From: Candidatus Nomurabacteria bacterium
Lineage (GTDB): Bacteria; Patescibacteriota; Minisyncoccia; Phycocordibacterales; UBA9973
Length of the DNA stretch: 26,825 nt
Direction: 5' to 3'
Assembly: GCA_943356425.1 (NCBI GenBank)
Contig: CALRFE010000001.1
Location: 1 to 26,825, forward strand
In this document: positions 6,034 through 26,825 of the stretch, one piece after another
How positions within the stretch are numbered: position 1 is the stretch's first letter
Layout: every line of letters begins with the position of its first letter
The notes under the pieces: model-generated
The model's database searches: none
What the model was told of the DNA's origin: nothing
What the model saw: the letters and a program-made list of their open reading frames with translations, nothing else
Made by a program: the position numbers and the translations under genes

Positions 6034-8574
6034 ATGAATATCACCATCACAAAACGCGACGGCACCCGAGAGCCATTCAATGCCGACCGAATCAATCGGG
6101 CGATTGAACGCGCGTGCTACGGACTTACTGATCCGATCGGTAAGGTCACACAAATTGCGAGCGAAACGAATCTCACGCTCTATGATGGTATTACGACTGA
6201 AGAAATGGACCAAGCTGCGATCAATGCAGCACTCCAGAACGCGCAATCTGATCTTGAATTTGATAAAATTGCGACTCGGCTCTTCCTAAAAACTATTTAT
6301 AAAAAAGTAGTTGGTGATTTTGATACTAAAGAAGAATTGGCGGCGATGCATAAGGGGCATTTTCCGCACTACATCCGTCTTGGCGTCGAGCTCGGATTGC
6401 TCGACCAACGGCTTGCAAAAGTTTTTGATCTTGATGAACTCGCAAAGGCGCTCAAGATCGAACGCGACGAGCTCTACAAATATTCCGGCATCTCGACGAT
6501 GCAAAATCGTTACCTTATCAAAGATGCAGAACAAAATGTGATCGAAACCCCGCAATATTTTTGGATGCGCGTCGCGATGGGTATGTCCATTCTTGAAAAA
6601 AATCCGACCGAATGGGCAAAGAAATTCTATGACAAGATGTCTAAGCTCGAATATCTCTCTGCGGGGTCAACTAACATCGGTGCGGGGACAACACGTCCTT
6701 CGCTCTCGAACTGTTTCTTGATGCAAGTTGAAGACGATATGGCGCACATCGGAAAAACTGCTTCTGACGTCTTAATGCTCTCAAAGGCGACCGGCGGTAT
6801 TGGACTTGCAGTCACAAAACTTCGTGCGAACGGATCAGTACTCAAATCGAACAACACAGTCTCTTCCGGCCCTGTTCCATTTTTACACATCATGGACTCT
6901 GCGGTCCGCGCAGTACAGCGCGGTGGCAAGAAAAAAGGCGCACTCTGTTTCTATATGGAGAACTGGCACATCGATTTCCAAGATTTTCTCGATCTCAAAC
7001 AGAATGCCGGTGATGATTATCGCCGTACGCGTACCGCAAACACCGCTGTCTATATGTCTGACGAATTCATGCAACGTGTTCGCGACGACAAAGACTGGTA
7101 TCTCTTCGATCCGAAAGAAGTCGCTGACCTGATCGAGCTCTATGGCACTGCGTTTTCAAAACGCTACGCAGAATATGCGCTCATGGCAGAACGAGGAGAG
7201 CTTAAAATGTGGCAAAAGTTACCTGCGCGTCAGCAGTACAAGAACATTCTTGTCTCGCTCCAGACGACGTCACATCCATGGCTCACCTGGAAAGATACGA
7301 TCAACGTTCGTGCGCTCAACAATAATACGGGAACCATCCACGCGTCGAATCTCTGTACCGAAGTGACGCTTCCACAGAACAAAGATAATGTTGCTGTCTG
7401 TAACTTGGTCTCCATCAATATTGCGCGCCATATCGTCGGCAAGCAGATCGACTGGATGCGTCTCGAAGAGTCCGCACGTCTCGCAACGCGCCAGCTCGAT
7501 AATTTGATCGATGTCAATAAACTTCCAATTCCAGAAGCGATAAAAGCAGACAAAGAAAATCGTGCAGTCGGTCTCGGACTCATGGGATTTGCCGATGCGA
7601 TCGAACAGCTCGGCTATTCATATGAAGACAAAGAGGCGCATGATATCGCAGACAAGATCTTCGAATTCATCAGTTATATGTCGATCGATGAGAGCGCGAT
7701 GCTCGCGAGCGAGCGCGGTAGTTACAAAAATTTTGAAGGCTCTGGCTGGTCCAAAGGAATGGTTCCGATCGACACGATCAAATTACTCGACGAAGGACGT
7801 GGAAAGAAGCTCGATATTCCTGAAGGCAGTCTCGACATGACGCCACCGCTCGATTGGACAGGACTCCGAAAGAAAGTGCGAAAGGGAATGCGTAATGCGA
7901 CAGTGCTCGCGATCGCGCCGAACGCAAACATCGGACTTGTCGCGGGTACATCACCCGGTATTGATCCACGCTTTGCGCAAATGTTCTCTCGAAATAAAAT
8001 TTCCGGAAAATATCTTGAAGTCAATCCGAACCTCGTTGCCGATCTCAAATCAGAAAATCTCTGGGAAAAACATCGCGAAGAAATATTGTCGAGCCATGGA
8101 GATCTCGAAGGCATCGCTGGTATTCCGGATCGCATCAAGGCGATCTACAAAACTTCTTTTTCAACATCACCGCATGCATTTATCGAAGTCGCCGCTCGCG
8201 CACAAAAATGGGTTGACCAAGCGATCTCTCGAAACATGTATCTTGATGTCCGCGATGTTGATGAGATCATGAAGATCTACTCAGCTGCATGGGAAAAAGG
8301 TTTGAAGACGACCTATTATCTCCACATGAAGCCGAAGCATACCGCAGAACAATCGACCGTACGCGTCAATAAATCAGAAAGTATGGGCAAGAAGGGATTC
8401 GCGTCAGTGTTTAATAAAGTTGAGACGAAGACCGAGGAAATTGTTTCTGCTCAAACAGATGGAACGACTGCAATACCGGATGTCCGACCGAGTCCATTGA
8501 AAGAAAAACCACAGTTGGTCGTCCATGGTCCTGAAGACCCGAATGATGCATTGTTGTGCGAAGGATGCCAGTAA
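6034..8574 (+). CDS. nrdA: Class I ribonucleoside-diphosphate reductase alpha subunit with N-terminal ATP cone
   Basis: ATP cone ITKRDGTREPF; LSNCFL; SNLCTE; AVCNL; TTYYL; C-terminal CEGCQ. No intein is seen. Confidence 0.97.
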   Translation: MNITITKRDGTREPFNADRINRAIERACYGLTDPIGKVTQIASETNLTLYDGITTEEMDQAAINAALQNAQSDLEFDKIATRLFLKTIYKKVVGDFDTKEELAAMHKGHFPHYIRLGVELGLLDQRLAKVFDLDELAKALKIERDELYKYSGISTMQNRYLIKDAEQNVIETPQYFWMRVAMGMSILEKNPTEWAKKFYDKMSKLEYLSAGSTNIGAGTTRPSLSNCFLMQVEDDMAHIGKTASDVLMLSKATGGIGLAVTKLRANGSVLKSNNTVSSGPVPFLHIMDSAVRAVQRGGKKKGALCFYMENWHIDFQDFLDLKQNAGDDYRRTRTANTAVYMSDEFMQRVRDDKDWYLFDPKEVADLIELYGTAFSKRYAEYALMAERGELKMWQKLPARQQYKNILVSLQTTSHPWLTWKDTINVRALNNNTGTIHASNLCTEVTLPQNKDNVAVCNLVSINIARHIVGKQIDWMRLEESARLATRQLDNLIDVNKLPIPEAIKADKENRAVGLGLMGFADAIEQLGYSYEDKEAHDIADKIFEFISYMSIDESAMLASERGSYKNFEGSGWSKGMVPIDTIKLLDEGRGKKLDIPEGSLDMTPPLDWTGLRKKVRKGMRNATVLAIAPNANIGLVAGTSPGIDPRFAQMFSRNKISGKYLEVNPNLVADLKSENLWEKHREEILSSHGDLEGIAGIPDRIKAIYKTSFSTSPHAFIEVAARAQKWVDQAISRNMYLDVRDVDEIMKIYSAAWEKGLKTTYYLHMKPKHTAEQSTVRVNKSESMGKKGFASVFNKVETKTEEIVSAQTDGTTAIPDVRPSPLKEKPQLVVHGPEDPNDALLCEGCQ

Positions 8575-8696
8575 AATTAGCTTATAGTTGTTAGGTTTTA
8601 GTTTTTAGCTTTAGAGACAAAGAAAATAAGAATTATCATTTATTGGTTATAGAATTCCAAGCTAAAAGCTAACACCTATAACCTAACCCCTAATCA
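8574..8696. repeat. Inverted pair of 7-nt-periodic arrays (NNNNTAG x5-6 ... CTANNNN x5) between nrdA and nrdB
   Basis: aaattag cttatag ttgttag gttttag tttttag ctttag (8574-8614) and ctaaaag ctaacac ctataac ctaaccc ctaatca (8662-8696). Confidence 0.8.
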
Positions 8697-8698
8697 TC

Positions 8699-9709
8699 AT
8701 GCTTATCGGAAAAGCCTCACCTGAAGATACCAGCCTCCATCCCATGCACTATAAATGGGCGTATGAACTGTACAACCAAGCAGTGCGTAACACATGGTTT
8801 CCGCACGAGATCCCGCTCGGCGAAGACCTCAAAGACTGGAAAGATATGACTGATGACGAACGTCATGCGGTGAAATTCCTGATGTCATTCTTTAATCCCG
8901 GAGAACTTATCGTCAATCGCTCTCTTGCACTCGGTGTGTATCCATATATCAAATCTCCTGAATGTCACTTGTATCTTGCAAAACAAATGTGGGAAGAAGC
9001 GAATCACTGTGTTGCGTTTGAATATGTACTTGAAACATTTCCAATGGATCGCGATACGATCTACAAGATCCACACGGAGACCGATTCGATGGTCAAGAAA
9101 GAAGGTTTCATCACAAAATATTTGAAACGCATGACTGAAGTGACACTCGATATTGATAGTTCAGAAGGCAAAAAAGAATTCATTAGAAACCTTGTCGCGA
9201 CCAACATCGTCATGGAAGGTATTTGGTTTTATTCGGGCTTCATGGTGGTGCTCTCATTCCGCCAGCGCAACAAACTCCGCAATTTCGCTTCGATGATCAA
9301 CTGGGTCATTCGTGACGAATCATTGCACTTGAAGTTCGGAATGAACCTCATTATGAATGTTTTAGAAGAAAATCCTGAGCTCCTCACGCCTGAATTTGCA
9401 GATGAAATTCGAGGTATTATCATCGAAGGTGTTGAACTTGAAGTCGCATATAATAAAGATCTTTTCCCAACAGGAATTCTTGGATTGAACGCCGACTACG
9501 TGAATCAATATGTGAAATATGTCGCTGATCGTCGTCTTGAAGAGCTCGGTATGCCGAAACATTACAACGCGACCAATCCCGCAAAATGGATGGCCGGCGC
9601 GACCGATGTGTATGAACTCGTGAACTTCTTCGAACAGCAGAACACTGCATACGAAGTTGACGCACACGGACATGCGAAGAAGTCAGAAAATGAAGGAGCT
9701 AAAGAATAG
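8699..9709 (+). CDS. nrdB: Ribonucleotide reductase beta subunit with class Ic (R2c, Mn/Fe) signature
   Basis: Ligands E69, E100, H103, E173, E207, H210. F107 occupies the radical-Tyr position. W33 and C-terminal Y318 (NFFEQQNTAY) are retained. Confidence 0.92.
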   Translation: MLIGKASPEDTSLHPMHYKWAYELYNQAVRNTWFPHEIPLGEDLKDWKDMTDDERHAVKFLMSFFNPGELIVNRSLALGVYPYIKSPECHLYLAKQMWEEANHCVAFEYVLETFPMDRDTIYKIHTETDSMVKKEGFITKYLKRMTEVTLDIDSSEGKKEFIRNLVATNIVMEGIWFYSGFMVVLSFRQRNKLRNFASMINWVIRDESLHLKFGMNLIMNVLEENPELLTPEFADEIRGIIIEGVELEVAYNKDLFPTGILGLNADYVNQYVKYVADRRLEELGMPKHYNATNPAKWMAGATDVYELVNFFEQQNTAYEVDAHGHAKKSENEGAKE

Positions 9710-21246: not shown

Positions 21247-21429
21247 ATGAGTATAATCACATACATCAAAGAAACTCAATCAGAGATGAAACACGTCAAT
21301 TGGCCGACTCGTAAAGATGCGATCATGTTCACTGGTGCGGTCATCGCTATTTCAGCATTCATCGCATACTTCCTCGGAATGTTCGATACCTTGTTCTCGT
21401 TCGTATTACAAAAATTACTTTTGAAATAA
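21247..21429 (+). CDS. secE: Preprotein translocase subunit SecE
   Basis: YIKETQSEMKHVNWPTRK plus one TM helix, directly upstream of nusG. Confidence 0.96.
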   Translation: MSIITYIKETQSEMKHVNWPTRKDAIMFTGAVIAISAFIAYFLGMFDTLFSFVLQKLLLK

Positions 21430-21432
21430 TTT

Positions 21433-21981
21433 ATGTCAAAACAAGAACTACGACCGGAACGAAATTGGTATGCTATCCACACGTATGCAGGATATGAAAA
21501 CGCCGTCATGCGTAATTTGAAGCAGCGTATTGAATCACTCGGTATGCAAGAAAAAATTTTTAACGTGATCGTGCCGACCGAAAAGAAGATCAAGATCAAA
21601 GGCGGGAAGCGCGTCGAGAACGAAGAAAAAGTATATCCGGGTTATGTGCTCGTCGATATGATCGTAACTGATGACTCGTGGTATGTTGTTCGCAATACAC
21701 CGCGCGTGACCGGTTTCGTTGGAGCAGGAGTCAATCCAGTGCCACTTGAAAAATCTGAAGTTGATGCGCTCTTCAAGAATATGGACGATCAAAAAACAGC
21801 GAAGCATAACATTGATCTCATTATTGGAGAAATTGTCCGCATTGCTGATGGTCCATTTAAAGAACTTGAAGGTAAAGTTGAGACCGTTGATCAAGAGCGT
21901 GGTAAGGTCCGTGTCCTCGTTTCAATGTTCGGTCGCGAAACACCTGTCGAACTCGACTTCTTGCAAGTGAAGAAGATGTAG
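21433..21981 (+). CDS. nusG: Transcription termination/antitermination factor NusG
   Basis: WYAIHTYAGYE, YPGYVLV, VRNTPRVTGFVG and the KOW domain ending FGRETPVELDF. Confidence 0.98.
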   Translation: MSKQELRPERNWYAIHTYAGYENAVMRNLKQRIESLGMQEKIFNVIVPTEKKIKIKGGKRVENEEKVYPGYVLVDMIVTDDSWYVVRNTPRVTGFVGAGVNPVPLEKSEVDALFKNMDDQKTAKHNIDLIIGEIVRIADGPFKELEGKVETVDQERGKVRVLVSMFGRETPVELDFLQVKKM

Positions 21982-22053
21982 GGTAATATGCTCTCTGTTA
22001 CGCTATTCGCTTCAACTTCTACTTACTACTAACTATTGCTACTAACTATCCCT

Positions 22054-22479
22054 ATGGCTAAAAAAATAACCAAAAAAATCAAAGTACAAGTCCCAGCCGG
22101 AAAAGCAACTCCTGCGCCACCGCTCGGTCCTGCGCTCGGTCAGGCAGGTGTGAACATCGGTGATTTTGTCACCAAATTCAATGCTGCTACTCAAAAGATG
22201 ATCGGAGATATCGTAGGTGTCTCACTTACGGTTTACGAAGACCGCAGTTATGATTTCGTCATCAAGACTCCTCCCGTGCACGGACTCTTGCTCAAAGCAG
22301 CCGGAATTGAAAAAGGTTCAGGCAAGCCGAATACTTCAAAAGTAGGCAAGATCACCAAAGCACAGCTCAAAGAAATCGCAGAAAAGAAAATGCCTGACTT
22401 GAACGCAAAGGACATCGAAGGTGCGATGAAAATCGTCGCTGGAAGTGCCCGCCAAGCAGGAATTGAAATTAAAGACTAA
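22054..22479 (+). CDS. rplK: 50S ribosomal protein L11
   Basis: [25 protein letters not shown] and [11 protein letters not shown] 22054. Confidence 0.98.
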
Positions 22480-22482
22480 ATA

Positions 22483-22519
22483 CACAAATCCCGTTCGCCT
22501 TTGGCGAACGGGATTTGTG
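22483..22519. terminator. Hairpin terminator directly after rplK
   Basis: CACAAATCCCGTTCGCC-ttt-GGCGAACGGGATTTGTG. Confidence 0.8.
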
Positions 22520-22526
22520 GTATATA

Positions 22527-22561
22527 CTAAAAGCTATAAACTAAAACCTAATCACTAATCC
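22527..22561 (+). repeat. Five CTA-heptamers forming the leader of the MazG-like gene
   Basis: ctaaaag ctataaa ctaaaac ctaatca ctaatcc, overlapping TATACT at 22523-22528. Confidence 0.85.
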
Positions 22562-22562
22562 C

Positions 22563-22892
22563 ATGGTTGACCTCAAAAAACTCCAAGAAGAAGTCATGCG
22601 CAACAAGCTCGAAAAGGGCTTTAATACGACCGATGTCGCACTCGAATTTTGTCGTGCGCACGAGGAGCTTTCAGAAGCATTTTCAAAATTCAACAAGAAT
22701 CAAGACGGCGTTGCCGAAGAGTTCGCCGATGTCGCGATCTTTCTGCTCGGCATGTGCGAGATATTGGGGTATGACCTTGAAAAAGAATTAGTTGCAAAGA
22801 TTGAAACAAATAAGAATCGAAAATACAAAAAATCAAAATCACCAGACGGAAAAGATATTTTCATTCGAGAGCGGACGGCAATCGATCCGTAA
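22563..22892 (+). CDS. MazG-like all-alpha NTP pyrophosphohydrolase
   Basis: EELSEAF...EEFADVAIFLL acidic metal motif, followed by LEKELVAKIETNKNRKY. Confidence 0.85.
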   Translation: MVDLKKLQEEVMRNKLEKGFNTTDVALEFCRAHEELSEAFSKFNKNQDGVAEEFADVAIFLLGMCEILGYDLEKELVAKIETNKNRKYKKSKSPDGKDIFIRERTAIDP

Positions 22893-22903
22893 ACGATACA
22901 CGA

Positions 22904-22944
22904 AAAACAAAGGGATGCTTTCGCAGAAAGCATCCCTTTGTTTT
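22904..22944. terminator. Intrinsic terminator overlapping the -35 of the next promoter
   Basis: AAAACAAAGGGATGCTTTC-gca-GAAAGCATCCCTTTGTTTT. Confidence 0.85.
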
Positions 22945-22971
22945 GACTTTTGTTATAAATAAAGGTATGGT
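22943..22971 (+). promoter_or_regulatory. Sigma-70 promoter of the nucleotidase gene
   Basis: TTGACT (22943-22948), 17-nt spacer, TATGGT (22966-22971). Confidence 0.6.
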
Positions 22972-22991
22972 GAGAAAAAATTCTTATCATA

Positions 22992-23684
22992 ATGAAGTAC
23001 ATATACAAGAATACGCTTGCGGGCGTCGACATGGACATGGTCCTCACTAATTGGGATGATCCAAAAGGATCATTTATCAATCATTGGAAAACGCATTTCG
23101 GAGACCTAAAATACTTGGGTGTCAAGAAAAGCGCCGTTTGGGATATCGCACAATTGTTTCCGGGGCATGAAAAGAGGCTGGATGATTTTTTCATGAATCC
23201 GCCGCGCGGTTTTTATCTGAATTTACGACCGATGCCGGGAGCGATCGCTGCTGTGAAAAAAATGATGGAAACGATGGAAGTTGTTGCCGTCACTACTCCG
23301 GTCTATGAAGCTGATGATCATACGCTCTCGCTCAATGAGCTTGAGAGTCGTGATCGGCTCTGGTGCCAGGTCGTTGAAGAAAAAAAGGAATGGTTGCGAA
23401 AATATTTCGGCAAAGATGCACCGGTCTTAAATCCGCTCTCTGACAAGACGCTCGCGCATGTTGATTTTCTTATTGACGACAAACCATCTGCCGGACAGAT
23501 CAAACGCAATCATCCCAGTTGGATACATGTGCTCTATGATGATGATTTCTTGTTCAATAAAAATGCAAAGAACCGCTTCAGATTAAATTGGAGGACATGG
23601 GAAGATGTCATGCCTGGCATCTTGAAAGAAGTTGAACGAAGAAAAAAACTTCGCGCGTTCTTTGACCCGCTCGGTCATGCATAA
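22992..23684 (+). CDS. HAD-superfamily 5'(3')-deoxyribonucleotidase (NT5C-like)
   Basis: Motif I VDMDMVL; FYLNLRPMPGA; VTTP; DKT; motif IV LIDDKP; RLNWRTW. Confidence 0.85.
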   Translation: MKYIYKNTLAGVDMDMVLTNWDDPKGSFINHWKTHFGDLKYLGVKKSAVWDIAQLFPGHEKRLDDFFMNPPRGFYLNLRPMPGAIAAVKKMMETMEVVAVTTPVYEADDHTLSLNELESRDRLWCQVVEEKKEWLRKYFGKDAPVLNPLSDKTLAHVDFLIDDKPSAGQIKRNHPSWIHVLYDDDFLFNKNAKNRFRLNWRTWEDVMPGILKEVERRKKLRAFFDPLGHA

Positions 23685-23702
23685 AATAATTTTAGATCAA
23701 AG

Positions 23703-23734
23703 AAAAAGCTCTGAGAATATTCTCAGAGCTTTTT
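23703..23734. terminator. 32-bp perfect palindrome, bidirectional terminator overlapping the DHFR stop codon
   Basis: AAAAAGCTCTGAGAAT|ATTCTCAGAGCTTTTT. Confidence 0.8.
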
Positions 23735-24250
23735 TTCATACGTGACGAATGTGTATGGGTAAGGATTTTTTTCGTCACTCGGAAATTTTTCTTCATGTGA
23801 TTTTTCCCATTTGCGCAGATCGATCTCAGGGAAAAAGGTATCTGCGGGAAGTTTTGCGTCCACATGCGTGATGTAGAGCCGGTCGGCGTAGGGAAGTGCT
23901 TCTTCATAAACATGTCCGCCGCCGATAATGAAGATTTCTGATTCTGCAGAATCATGTCGCGCAATGTCCTTTGAAGCGCGACTTTTTGTGTATCGTTCAA
24001 TCGCTTCTTCAAGAGAATGCACAATAATGACACCTTCGCGGAAATACTGCGGATCGCGTGTGATGATAATATTTTCACGATTCGGAAGCGCTCGGCCGAT
24101 GGATTCGAACGTTTTTCGTCCCATGATCACTGGATGACCGCTCGTCGTCTCGCGAAAGTGCTTCATGTCCGCAGGCATCTGCCAGAGGAGCTGGTTATCC
24201 TTGCCGAGTTCGTTATTTTGTCCGATGGCTGCAATTATTGAGAGGATCAT
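23723..24250 (-). CDS. folA: Dihydrofolate reductase
   Basis: LGKDNQLLWQMPADMKHFRETT, VIMGRKTFESIGRALPNRENI, FIIGGG and ADTFFP. The start overlaps the stop of the TS-like gene (ATGA). Confidence 0.97.
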   Translation of the reverse strand: MILSIIAAIGQNNELGKDNQLLWQMPADMKHFRETTSGHPVIMGRKTFESIGRALPNRENIIITRDPQYFREGVIIVHSLEEAIERYTKSRASKDIARHDSAESEIFIIGGGHVYEEALPYADRLYITHVDAKLPADTFFPEIDLRKWEKSHEEKFPSDEKNPYPYTFVTYEKKL

Positions 24251-25083
24251 ACGGCGATACTTAAGCCTTCTATTTGTGGTAATGGATTATACTGCGCCAT
24301 AAGCGGTTCAAGAATTTCCGGCACTAAAGCTTCGTCCATGTTGCACGCGCGATCGTAAGCATTTTCGGGGAGTTTGAGCATGATATTTGTGTGATCATTA
24401 GTTCGACTGACGAGCTCTTTCGCGCCTTCGTAATGATTGTCATAAATATGCGCATTTGAAATTGAGTGCGTGTAAATACCGGGACGGACGCCGAGTTTCT
24501 GAGCGAGAATATTTGCAAGGAGTGAGAAGCCGAGCGTATCGAATGGACAGCCGAGCATCATGTCATTCGAACGGATGATGTTGTGCAGATGTAATCGTCC
24601 GCCAATAATATTTACCGTCCAAGTATATGGGCACGGAACATTTTTTTTAGGAATGCCGCCATAACCATCTTCGCGCGGGTCCCACGTGACGACGACGCCG
24701 TGACGAGATGACGGATCTGCAGTCAAAAGTTTTACCAGTGCATCGAGCTGATCTCTGCCAAATGCATGGCGCCAACGCCAGCCGTATGCCGCTGCAAGTG
24801 TGCCATCGGATTCGAGAAACGGGTCCCACATTTTTGTAAATTTACGCAAGAATTCGTCTGGCTTTTTTGAGCCGCTGATGAACCAGAGTGTTTCGGCAAT
24901 AGGGGACTTTAACGGATTTTTACGGAGCGTGAGGATCGGCAGACCATCTTTTTCAAGATCGATCGAAAAGGTTATCCCAGGAAGTGCCTTGGTTTTTTTA
25001 CCAGTGCGGACGTTCAACTCCTCAATGCCTTCATCAAGAATTTTCCGGATCAAGTCTTTGTACACCTGGTCAAACTTTGTCAT
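24247..25083 (-). CDS. Thymidylate-synthase-family protein with Asp at the Asn177-equivalent site (candidate dCMP methylase)
   Basis: RTG, ETLWF, YGWRWR, catalytic PC151, RSNDMMLGCPFD182 and NAHIY. The thyA symbol is withheld because the specificity residue is not the dUMP-type Asn. Confidence 0.9.
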   Translation of the reverse strand: MTKFDQVYKDLIRKILDEGIEELNVRTGKKTKALPGITFSIDLEKDGLPILTLRKNPLKSPIAETLWFISGSKKPDEFLRKFTKMWDPFLESDGTLAAAYGWRWRHAFGRDQLDALVKLLTADPSSRHGVVVTWDPREDGYGGIPKKNVPCPYTWTVNIIGGRLHLHNIIRSNDMMLGCPFDTLGFSLLANILAQKLGVRPGIYTHSISNAHIYDNHYEGAKELVSRTNDHTNIMLKLPENAYDRACNMDEALVPEILEPLMAQYNPLPQIEGLSIAV

Positions 25084-25090
25084 ATCCTGT

Positions 25091-25098
25091 AGTATACT
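25091..25098. promoter_or_regulatory. Palindromic AGTATACT giving a TATACT -10 on both strands
   Basis: Lies in the 29-nt gap between divergent ATGs, 7 nt from 25083 and 14 nt from 25113. Confidence 0.6.
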
Positions 25099-25112
25099 TA
25101 AAAAACGCCATT

Positions 25113-25643
25113 ATGGAAAACAACACAAAAAACACGATTTCATACCCGTTCTTGCCTCCTGGTAAGAAGATCGAGTATGTCGGGATCGATGATCCATACA
25201 TGCTTCACGCAAAAGAAGTTGCAAGAAAATCAACTGATCACGCTATGCCGACTGGAGCAGTCATTACTTGTGACGGGATCATCATTGCTGAGGCTTCAAA
25301 TAAAGCAGCATTGACCAATCCGACGCTCATTAAATTGCACAAGAAATATTGTATTCGCCGAATGTGTAATATCCCGACGGGTAAAAAATATTGGGCTTGT
25401 CCTGGCTGTGCGTCGCACGAAAATCATGGCGAGTACCGCGCCGTTCTTATGGCGCTCAAAAAATTACCGAAGGAATATGATGAACTCGATCTCTATTTAT
25501 GGGGGCACTGGTGGTGTTGCGAACCGTGCTGGAACAAGATGTTCTCGATCGGTATCAAACGCGTCTTTCTTTTAGAAAAGAGCGAAATATTGTTCAATAA
25601 TAAAGAACCAGGCAATATTATTGGCAAGCAATTGACGCAATAA
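25113..25643 (+). CDS. Zn-dependent cytidine/deoxycytidylate deaminase family protein
   Basis: PTGAVI...ASN, H105-G-E107, C136-E-P-C139, GIKRV, plus a Cys-rich insert. ATG 25113 is preferred because the longer ORF overlaps the TS-like gene. Confidence 0.88.
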   Translation: MENNTKNTISYPFLPPGKKIEYVGIDDPYMLHAKEVARKSTDHAMPTGAVITCDGIIIAEASNKAALTNPTLIKLHKKYCIRRMCNIPTGKKYWACPGCASHENHGEYRAVLMALKKLPKEYDELDLYLWGHWWCCEPCWNKMFSIGIKRVFLLEKSEILFNNKEPGNIIGKQLTQ

Positions 25644-25655
25644 AAACTGTTCTAC

Positions 25656-25695
25656 AAAGCCGATTTTGGTCTCTATAACCAAAATCGGCTTTTTT
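25656..25695 (+). terminator. Intrinsic terminator
   Basis: AAAGCCGATTTTGGT-ctctata-ACCAAAATCGGCTTT followed by further T. Confidence 0.85.
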
Positions 25696-25781
25696 ATTTC
25701 TCTATGGTAGGATATGGATATGATATAGCGAAGAACACCCCTATAATTACTCACTAATCCGGGATCTCCCGACTAAATCAA

Positions 25782-26825
25782 ATGAAAGACAAACAAGTAG
25801 AAAAACTCATCAAAGCAGAAATAAAACGTCAAAAGAGCGTTATCAACCTCATCGCTTCTGAAAATTATGTTTCAAAAGATGTTTTAACTGCGCTCGGTTC
25901 TGAGCTTACCAACAAATACGCTGAAGGATATCCAAACCGACGGTATTACGGCGGCAATCAAATTATCGACAAAGTAGAACAGCTCGCTATCGACCGTGCA
26001 CTCAAACTTTTTAAATTAAAACCGCTTGAATGGCATTGCAATGTCCAGCCGCTTTCAGGCTCGCCTGCAAACTTGGCGGTGTATTCTGCGCTTGTTCCGC
26101 TTGGTGGAAAAATTATGGGGATGAAGCTCTCGTCCGGAGGACATCTCACCCACGGACAATCTGTTTCGATGACGGGAAAAATTTGGAAACAAGTGCCGTA
26201 TGAAGTTGACCCACTTACTGAAATTTTAAATTACGATAAACTAATGGCGATCGCACTTGCCGAAAAACCAGACATTATTGTTTGTGGTTTTACTGCGTAT
26301 CCACGTTTTGTTGATTTCAAAAAATTCCGCGAAATCGCAGATGCATCAGGCGCAATTCTCATGGTGGATATGTCACACTTTGCCGGACTCGTTGCAGGTG
26401 GTGTGTATCCATCACCATTTGAATATGCAGATGTTGTAACGACAACCACACACAAGACGTTGCGCGCTGCGCGTTCAGCAATGATCTTCGTGCGCAAAGA
26501 CAAGCGCGAATTTGAAAAAAAGATCGACAAGACGATCATTCCAGGACTCCAAGGCGGTCCACATGAAAACCAGATCGCTGCAGTTGCGGTCGCACTCGGC
26601 GAAGCAATGACTCCGGTGTACAAAAAATATGCTGTACAAATTGTCAAAAATGCAAAAGCGCTCGCCGCCGAACTTCAAAAACTTGGCTGGCGCATTATTT
26701 CCGGCGGGACCGACTCGCATCTTTTACTCGTCGATACTTGGATGAGTGGAAAGTGTGTTGCTGGTAAAGAGGCAAGTGCTCGCCTTGAAAAAGCAGGCAT
26801 CATCGTCAATATGAACACGATCCCG
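25782..26825 (+). CDS. glyA: Serine hydroxymethyltransferase (3'-truncated by the window; not in ORF track)
   Basis: LIASENY, TNKYAEGYPNRRYYGG, QPLSGSPAN, GGHLTHG, DMSHFAGLVAG, TTTHKTLR (PLP Lys), GGTDSH. TATAAT at 25742-25747. Confidence 0.97.
   Translation, partial: MKDKQVEKLIKAEIKRQKSVINLIASENYVSKDVLTALGSELTNKYAEGYPNRRYYGGNQIIDKVEQLAIDRALKLFKLKPLEWHCNVQPLSGSPANLAVYSALVPLGGKIMGMKLSSGGHLTHGQSVSMTGKIWKQVPYEVDPLTEILNYDKLMAIALAEKPDIIVCGFTAYPRFVDFKKFREIADASGAILMVDMSHFAGLVAGGVYPSPFEYADVVTTTTHKTLRAARSAMIFVRKDKREFEKKIDKTIIPGLQGGPHENQIAAVAVALGEAMTPVYKKYAVQIVKNAKALAAELQKLGWRIISGGTDSHLLLVDTWMSGKCVAGKEASARLEKAGIIVNMNTIP

Follow-up and report, generated by a model that had tools for sequence, protein, structure and literature searches.

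Which nucleotide does the thymidylate synthase (TS) homologue of a Candidatus Nomurabacteria bacterium methylate, and in which order does this cell take the steps that lead to thymidylate? The gene (24247..25083, minus strand; 278 aa) lies on a stretch of 26,825 nucleotides, referred to here as the window, which is the entire contig 1 (CALRFE010000001.1) of a 647 kb assembly (GCA_943356425.1) that is 89% complete. A lake-water metagenome was the sole public run found to contain the locus. According to textbooks, all cells make thymidylate through methylation of deoxyuridine monophosphate (dUMP) by ThyA or ThyX. The homologue carries Asp at the base-reading position where ThyA has Asn, and we predict, with good support from sequence and model comparisons, that it is a deoxycytidine monophosphate (dCMP) C5-methyltransferase (EC 2.1.1.54 type). 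For the cell's thymidylate pathway we infer substrate, product and order as follows: dCMP would be converted to a 5-methyldeoxycytidine (5-methyl-dC) nucleotide and this in turn to a thymine nucleotide, so that the two textbook steps, deamination and methylation, would run in reversed order. We hold this pathway to be moderately probable.

An Asp-type thymidylate synthase homologue coupled to dihydrofolate reductase

The protein matches PF00303 over residues 7-239 (E 1.3e-53; 182.3 bits against a cut-off of 24.3). Its AlphaFold (AF2) model, made with 90 homologues in the input, has a mean pLDDT of 96.9, and a Foldseek search of the PDB returned true thymidylate synthases over the full length as top matches (TM up to 0.87). 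Retained, as in E. coli ThyA (EC 2.1.1.45), are the catalytic Cys (C146) and R21, E58, W80, Y94, R126, R166, S167, D169, H207 and Y209 (E. coli numbering); in the query, C151, R171-S172-x-D174, E64 and Y100 align with C146, R166-S167-D169, E58 and Y94. The C-terminal tail (...GLSIAV) is similar to that of E. coli ThyA (...APVAI).

The first-pass annotation of this DNA had described an Asp at the Asn177 position of E. coli ThyA, the loss of His147, translational coupling to dihydrofolate reductase (DHFR) and a neighbouring deaminase, and all four were borne out. On the minus strand, the codons CCG TGC CCA TAT encode P-C151-P152-Y (TGC CCA at 24628..24633) and CCA TTC GAT ACG encode P-F-D182-T (GAT at 24540-24538). 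In phmmer comparisons with solved TS structures, a block free of gaps pairs 'vpCPytw' with 'ppCHclf' and 'RSnDmmLGcPFD' with 'RSaDifLGvPFN'. MAFFT alignment to E. coli ThyA agrees (C151 corresponds to Cys146, P152 to His147 and D182 to Asn177), and the spacing from C151 to D182 is 31 residues, likewise the spacing from C146 to N177. Alignment with E. coli ThyA and T4 gp42 also places D182 on the base-reading Asn177 position. The DHFR gene (23723..24250, minus strand; 175 aa, profile match) starts within the end of the TS gene, the stop and start codons sharing a 4-nt ATGA overlap that reads GTATGATCC, and a CDA-fold deaminase gene (25113..25643, plus strand) adjoins the TS gene in divergent orientation. 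DHFR is linked to Asp-type TS in relatives too. The TS gene is intact, belongs to a conserved Asp-type family and is coupled to that of DHFR.

Besides Asn177 to Asp and His147 to Pro, the differences from E. coli ThyA (~30% identity) are Trp83 to Phe, Arg127 to His, Leu143 to Asn and Gln165 to Ile. By the residues of canonical ThyA the protein falls outside that class, with Asp182 instead of Asn177 and Pro152 instead of His147. Of eight NCBIfam TS equivalogs listed, it falls short of the cut-off for seven (e.g., 141 against 327 bits) and narrowly passes that of one (TIGR03284; 114.7 against 108.35 bits).

The most direct alternative is that the enzyme is an ordinary dUMP thymidylate synthase despite the Asp, that the deaminase turns dCMP into dUMP before methylation, as in the textbook pathway, and that the residue differences reflect lineage drift. 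The narrow pass of TIGR03284 is consistent with this, as are the ThyA-like tail and the remaining catalytic residues. We consider it unlikely, and the constraint on the Asp across the family is one of the points that argue against it. Among the 120 closest homologues (65-100% identity; source names, where given, are Nomurabacteria, Paceibacterota or Minisyncoccia), PCP occurs in 120/120, and the second motif ends in PFD in 115/115 of those found by motif search. For a diverse set we searched 1.84 billion cluster representatives and analysed 144 sequences, made up of the best full-length matches and reference sequences. Position 177 is Asp in 120 and Asn in 24 of the 144. Without T4 gp42 and three Asp variants nested in the canonical clade, 116 diverse family representatives remain, every one with Asp, against Asn in 24/24 canonical representatives. 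Codons for Asp and Asn are one transition apart. Despite this short distance, no interchange of the two was seen among sequences less than 50% identical, which argues that the Asp is under selection and functionally required in the family, rather than a product of drift.

Since PFD and PCP are conserved across the closest homologues, and the Asp across the diverse family, the signature is neither chance nor sequencing error. Other positions co-vary between the Asp and Asn types: 143 (Leu to Asn), 147 (His to mostly Pro; His147 is found in 23/24 canonical representatives), 83 (Trp to Phe), 48, 127 (Arg to Gln or His), 176 and 165 (E. coli numbering). A tree built by maximum likelihood groups canonical ThyA in a clade of its own (support 99), with the query outside it. 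The query belongs to a small Asp-type clade, apart from an 85-row Asp clade that contains the enzymes of phages Xp12 and RcRudolph; the backbone of the tree is unresolved and its root uncertain.

The overlap with DHFR and the ThyA-like C-terminal tail point to methylase chemistry. A dCMP hydroxymethylase like T4 gp42 would instead form 5-hydroxymethyl-dCMP, possibly deaminated to 5-hmdUMP. T4 gp42 is like the query in its TS fold, in having Asp where the base is read and in lacking a His next to the catalytic Cys. It is only 22% identical to the query, lacks the C-terminal segment common to the query and E. coli ThyA, and does not depend on DHFR, whereas the query is coupled to DHFR and its relatives are linked to it; a hydroxymethylase releases tetrahydrofolate and has no need of that enzyme. 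No glucosyltransferase or other downstream hypermodification gene was found within the window, and with a hydroxymethylated product the cell would have no source of thymidylate. Thus, we regard a hydroxymethylase as extremely unlikely. The first-pass annotation had also preferred a methylase, and the ATGA overlap, the tail missing in T4 gp42 and the full-length fold matches to true thymidylate synthases all favour that prediction.

Phage relatives and the predicted chemistry

The best phage matches of the query are Xp12-like (E 1e-44 to 1e-49), compared with about 1e-30 for T4-like td enzymes and 1e-36 for the best solved bacterial ThyA. Repeating the phage search with the Xp12 enzyme as query gained nothing useful. 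Like the query, the Xp12-type enzymes (Xp12, Mallos, RcRudolph, A1432) have Asp at 177 and Pro at 147, and they share with it the motifs FGRDQL and WDPxEDGxGxxxxxNVPCP at 33-41% identity. They differ from it in lacking the longer ThyA-like C-terminus of the query. Their modules, like that of the window, comprise a CDA-family deaminase, DHFR, and a nucleoside triphosphate (NTP) pyrophosphatase or HAD hydrolase: the TS homologue of Xp12 is flanked by a HAD hydrolase on one side and by a dCMP deaminase with DHFR on the other, that of RcRudolph is preceded by a MazG-like gene, and DHFR is adjacent to TS in both phages, as it is in the bacterial relatives. Unlike the Xp12 module, the window module is cellular and chromosomal and lies in a housekeeping locus beside secE-nusG-rplK. 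BLASTP of the window deaminase, HAD-family and MazG proteins against the partner proteins of Xp12 and RcRudolph gave no significant similarity, and orthology of these partners was rejected on that result.

Published work provides biochemical precedent for the predicted activity. The Xp12 TS and five of seven Asp-type metavirome enzymes give 5-methyl-dC (5mdCMP) in E. coli (Yang et al., bioRxiv 10.1101/2024.12.05.627091, preprint). Deaminases encoded beside Asp-type TS prefer 5-methylcytosine (5mC), and one of them, mSCD-B5, is active on 5mdCTP, not on monophosphates, and also on single-stranded DNA; such phages were proposed to derive thymine nucleotides from 5-methyl-dC nucleotides (bioRxiv 10.1101/2024.12.05.627091). 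In metaviromes, positions 177 and 147 are the top two that separate the TS of cytosine-modified from that of unmodified contigs (Yang et al., 2021, PMC8670742). Asn to Asp mutants of the E. coli and L. casei enzymes were reported in classical work to switch preference to dCMP (cited in PMC8670742). The mutants and the natural Asp-type enzymes that made 5mdCMP both argue against a dUMP enzyme here. The prediction that the enzyme acts on dCMP rather than dUMP had been made in the first-pass annotation; it now draws on an Asp-invariant family, the co-varying active-site positions, the Xp12-type relatives, the 5mdCMP data of the preprint and the metavirome ranking.

We propose the following mechanism. 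Cys151 would attack C6 of dCMP, and Asp182 would read cytosine N3/N4, where Asn reads uracil N3-H/O4. Transfer of a carbon and a hydride from methylenetetrahydrofolate (CH2-THF) would produce 5-methyl-dCMP and dihydrofolate, with folate recycled by the translationally coupled DHFR and the nearby serine hydroxymethyltransferase (SHMT). The dCMP may be supplied from dCTP by a MazG-like pyrophosphatase. The divergently transcribed deaminase would then convert the 5-methyl-dC nucleotide to a thymine nucleotide, most likely at the monophosphate level, although the phage deaminase linked to an Asp-type TS uses the triphosphate.

The phage precedent raises a different possibility, in which the enzyme methylates dCMP but most of the product is phosphorylated and enters DNA, as in Xp12. 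In that case 5-methylcytosine would replace part or all of the cytosine, with thymidylate obtained as a by-product or by scavenging. The gene set of the window (pyrophosphatase, HAD-family hydrolase, Asp-type TS, deaminase and DHFR) parallels the Xp12 and RcRudolph modules, the 177/147 signature marks modified-cytosine contigs in metaviromes (PMC8670742), and the use of 5mdCTP by one characterised phage deaminase implies a 5mdCTP pool (bioRxiv 10.1101/2024.12.05.627091). We nevertheless judge this to be very unlikely. The accessory proteins lack sequence similarity to their phage counterparts, no dedicated deoxynucleoside monophosphate kinase was seen within the window, and the genomic evidence below provides further arguments against it. 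By analogy with Xp12, a branch from the thymidylate pathway is conceivable, in which part of the 5-methyl-dC nucleotide would escape deamination, be phosphorylated and be incorporated, so that these ultra-small, free-living bacteria would have 5-methylcytosine built in before replication; this we consider quite unlikely.

Asp-type enzymes occupy the thymidylate-synthase niche

We searched one sample of 401 genomes of the phylum at the protein level. This replaced an earlier DNA pattern (RSxD...GxP[FY]D), which gave five matches in 301 genomes and was too strict, as relatives have P-H-D. The Asp-type TS family was identified in 19/401 genomes from 12 families (42-63% identity), and several of the Asp-type genomes are closed or 99-100% complete (e.g., G214). 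In 19/19 the Asp-type TS is the sole PF00303 match over the family cut-off; one genome (G274) has one more match, below it. Matches to the ThyX family occur in 164/401 genomes, in 1/19 with an Asp-type TS against 163/382 without (Fisher p 6e-4, related genomes not being independent). Clear TK1 matches were found in 3/18 Asp-type genomes and deoxynucleoside kinase (dNK) matches above cut-off in 2/18. The window genome has one PF00303 gene and one CDA-family deaminase; neither ThyX nor TK1 was found in it. The Asp-type TS occupies the thymidylate-synthase niche in these genomes. Because cells must make dTTP, and a second TS is lacking, ThyX is rare and thymidine kinases are few, the cell very probably obtains its thymidylate from the module. 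The same scarcity of other visible sources argues against a methylase that serves mainly to modify DNA. The anticorrelation with ThyX is equally expected of a dUMP enzyme, as it needs dTMP output only.

Comparison of the locus with those of two relatives leads in the same direction. In the window (21247-26825), secE-nusG-rplK is followed by MazG, the Asp-type TS with DHFR, and the divergent deaminase. A genome of the same family (G256, 100% complete; locus L066, G256:C8:44000-63900), with NusG and L11 at 82% and 81% identity to the window proteins, encodes after rplK a dCMP deaminase of the ComEB type (S. mutans enzyme, E 2e-27; TIGR02571, E 2e-34), MazG, folA and an Asn-type thyA. A genome of the same order (G211, 100% complete; locus L041, G211:C5:8000-27900) has a long-form dCTP deaminase Dcd (E 5e-80), folA-thyA (Asn type), glyA (77% identical to the window glyA), tmk and dut; no CDA deaminase was found anywhere in that genome. 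The query thus shares with ThyA the operon partner folA and occupies the chromosomal locus of thyA in relatives. Each of the three modules combines one C-to-U/T deamination, one methylation and folate recycling, and therefore the Asp-type pair stands in for the thymidylate pathway. The locus beside secE-nusG-rplK looks like a hotspot for the swapping of thymidylate pathways. The Asp-type homologues nearest to the query (82% and 69% identical) likewise lie in a secE-nusG-rplK setting, on other contigs; one of these is 198 kb long and carries ribosomal protein genes.

These replacements are as expected if the enzyme methylates dUMP as they are under the reversed order, since either reading requires that the module deliver dTMP in place of canonical thyA. 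They are at odds with wholesale cytosine substitution, which would be unparsimonious in one genome when relatives with L11 and NusG 81-82% identical use ordinary modules at the locus. The window MazG-like protein is 78% identical to the MazG of G256, which adjoins a canonical dCMP deaminase and belongs to a canonical pathway, so it is not a specialised device for dCTP exclusion.

Two other interpretations of the locus were discarded. A prophage or mis-binned phage contig was ruled out, as the flanks are secE, nusG, rplK, glyA and ribonucleotide reductase genes and the arrangement is syntenic with relatives. The absence of dUTPase (dut) and Tmk was rejected as evidence for a bypass of dUMP: the contig stops inside glyA, and tmk and dut directly follow glyA in G211, so that their absence from an 89%-complete assembly is uninformative.

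Several side observations were made in the survey. Many of the ThyX-family matches in the phylum are weak (E 1e-8 to 1e-20) and occur in pairs, both members in one frame of 450-800 aa. As judged from their domain matches, these are tandem double-domain ThyX-like proteins, and whether they function bears on any ThyX census of the phylum. Three Asp-177 representatives are nested inside the ThyA clade of the tree. Two genomes, G227 (L011, G227:C4) and G333 (L028, G333:C5), encode ThyA with a canonical backbone (42-48% identical to E. coli ThyA) and Asp at 177; His147, Trp83 and Arg127 are retained, Pro is found at Arg21, and each gene adjoins DHFR and a longer deaminase in an open frame of 350-370 aa. 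These genes appear to be independent natural Asn to Asp switches on canonical backbones. Frames of ~470-560 aa with a partial TS-like domain (profile ~90-235) were identified in G363 (L040, G363:C1:260822-263839) and ~14 other genomes of the class; they have Asn at 177 and Phe after the Cys, and most lie 1-2 kb from a CDA-family deaminase. On the contig of P0029 (L069), the interval 7389-9594 from rplK to DHFR/Asp-type TS holds a Vut_1 transporter, a DHFR/RibD_C-like gene and an F420_ligase-family (CofE-like) gene, a set that hints at unusual folate salvage or polyglutamylation.

The deaminase partner and the order of steps

The divergent zinc deaminase of the window (176 aa; assigned by profile match and family alignment) belongs to a family with 115 homologues in the protein collection, for which all given source names are Patescibacteria-type. 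Family invariants are H77, C81, R83, C97, C100 and H106-x-E108, along with ...LWGHWWCCxxCW. Like the phage 5mC-selective deaminases (mSCD-B5 and others), it is a PF00383 member encoded beside an Asp-type TS. It differs from mSCD-B5, which acts on triphosphates and single-stranded DNA, in belonging to this distinct GHWWCC family, which in our searches was seen only in Patescibacteria-type genomes. The model of the protein has a pLDDT of 87.8; assignment to a specific subfamily by fold was dropped, as its CDA-fold matches were weak and mixed.

The family is present in 16/401 genomes, 15/16 of which carry an Asp-type TS, with the two genes within 2.5 kb in 10. It was not found alongside Asn-type ThyA among the 401 genomes. 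Thus, this deaminase family travels with the Asp-type TS as a dedicated partner. Such near-exclusive pairing fits a private intermediate better than a generic supply of dUMP, and it would be unexpected if the deaminase merely made dUMP. Natural fusions also exist, in which an Asp-type TS is joined to a dCMP deaminase or to a PRA-PH pyrophosphatase.

Several points count against the reversed order. The Xp12-type enzymes that have been tested are all from phages, are only 33-41% identical to the query and fall in a different Asp-type subclade, in a tree with an unresolved backbone. Two of the seven Asp-type phage enzymes tested yielded no 5mdCMP (bioRxiv 10.1101/2024.12.05.627091). No solved dCMP deaminase is a close structural match to the window deaminase (TM 0.4-0.47), and the closed genome G486 encodes a family member (C1:157865-158347; 41% identical) without a PF00303 gene and with a marginal ThyX match only. 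The joint replacement and the pairing could also stem from transfer or inheritance of the genes as a cassette. Finally, ~10 Asn-type ThyA genes of the same class have a nearby deaminase as well, as an ordinary dUMP enzyme supplied by deamination would predict. Linkage alone is therefore compatible with the canonical order too, and we rejected deaminase adjacency as decisive proof of the reversed one.

The nucleotide pyrophosphatase of these modules may vary. An atypical dUTPase-fold gene is found within the module or next to it in 13/18 Asp-type genomes (e.g., G026:C1:60793-61080, G474:C1:198720-198986 and G214:C1:509470-509772), in two of the 13 beside just one of the two genes. These genes match the profile at positions ~23-115 only, in frames of 215-245 aa, and may encode the dCTP pyrophosphatase of the pathway. 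In G026, tmk lies directly 3' of the deaminase. The window module has a MazG-like gene instead (22563..22892, plus strand; 109 aa), encoding an all-alpha NTP pyrophosphatase proposed to convert dCTP to dCMP.

If the reversed order is correct, scattered Patescibacteria (~5% of the 401 genomes, from at least 12 families) make thymine nucleotides without a dUMP intermediate, by chemistry reported so far only for phages with 5-methylcytosine DNA; a full-text literature search found no paper on a cellular version of the pathway. It would be a natural case in which the order of pathway steps was swapped through a one-base specificity switch (a single Asn/Asp transition). The labels 'thymidylate synthase' and 'dCMP deaminase' in annotations and metabolic models would need correction, and the GHWWCC proteins would form a new family of candidate 5mC-acting deaminases, with potential use in methylome sequencing. 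It would also raise the question of how cells exclude 5-methyl-dCTP from DNA, or whether they do. Were 5-methyl-dC incorporated, it would be the first case of a cellular genome in which a base is replaced by way of the nucleotide pool.

The remaining genes of the window are arranged around the module in the order secE-nusG-rplK, MazG-like, NT5C-like, DHFR and TS (minus strand), deaminase, SHMT and contig end. The SHMT gene (glyA; 25782..26825, plus strand), predicted to regenerate CH2-THF, is truncated by the contig end. A homologue of NT5C-type 5'(3')-deoxyribonucleotidases (22992..23684, plus strand; 230 aa) is encoded between the MazG-like and DHFR genes; no counterpart was found when the syntenic regions of four relatives were compared, or on the contig of the closest homologue. 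The TS and deaminase genes are separated by a divergent intergenic region of 29 nt (25084..25112). Matches to consensus sequences only were found for a promoter-like site of the TS-DHFR pair (25119..25091, minus strand; -10 TATACT) and for terminator-like hairpins 3' of DHFR (23734-23703, minus strand) and 3' of the deaminase (25656-25692). These sites fit a possible TS-DHFR bicistron and a monocistronic deaminase. Genes for the large and small subunits of a class I ribonucleotide reductase are encoded on the same contig (window 6034-9709).

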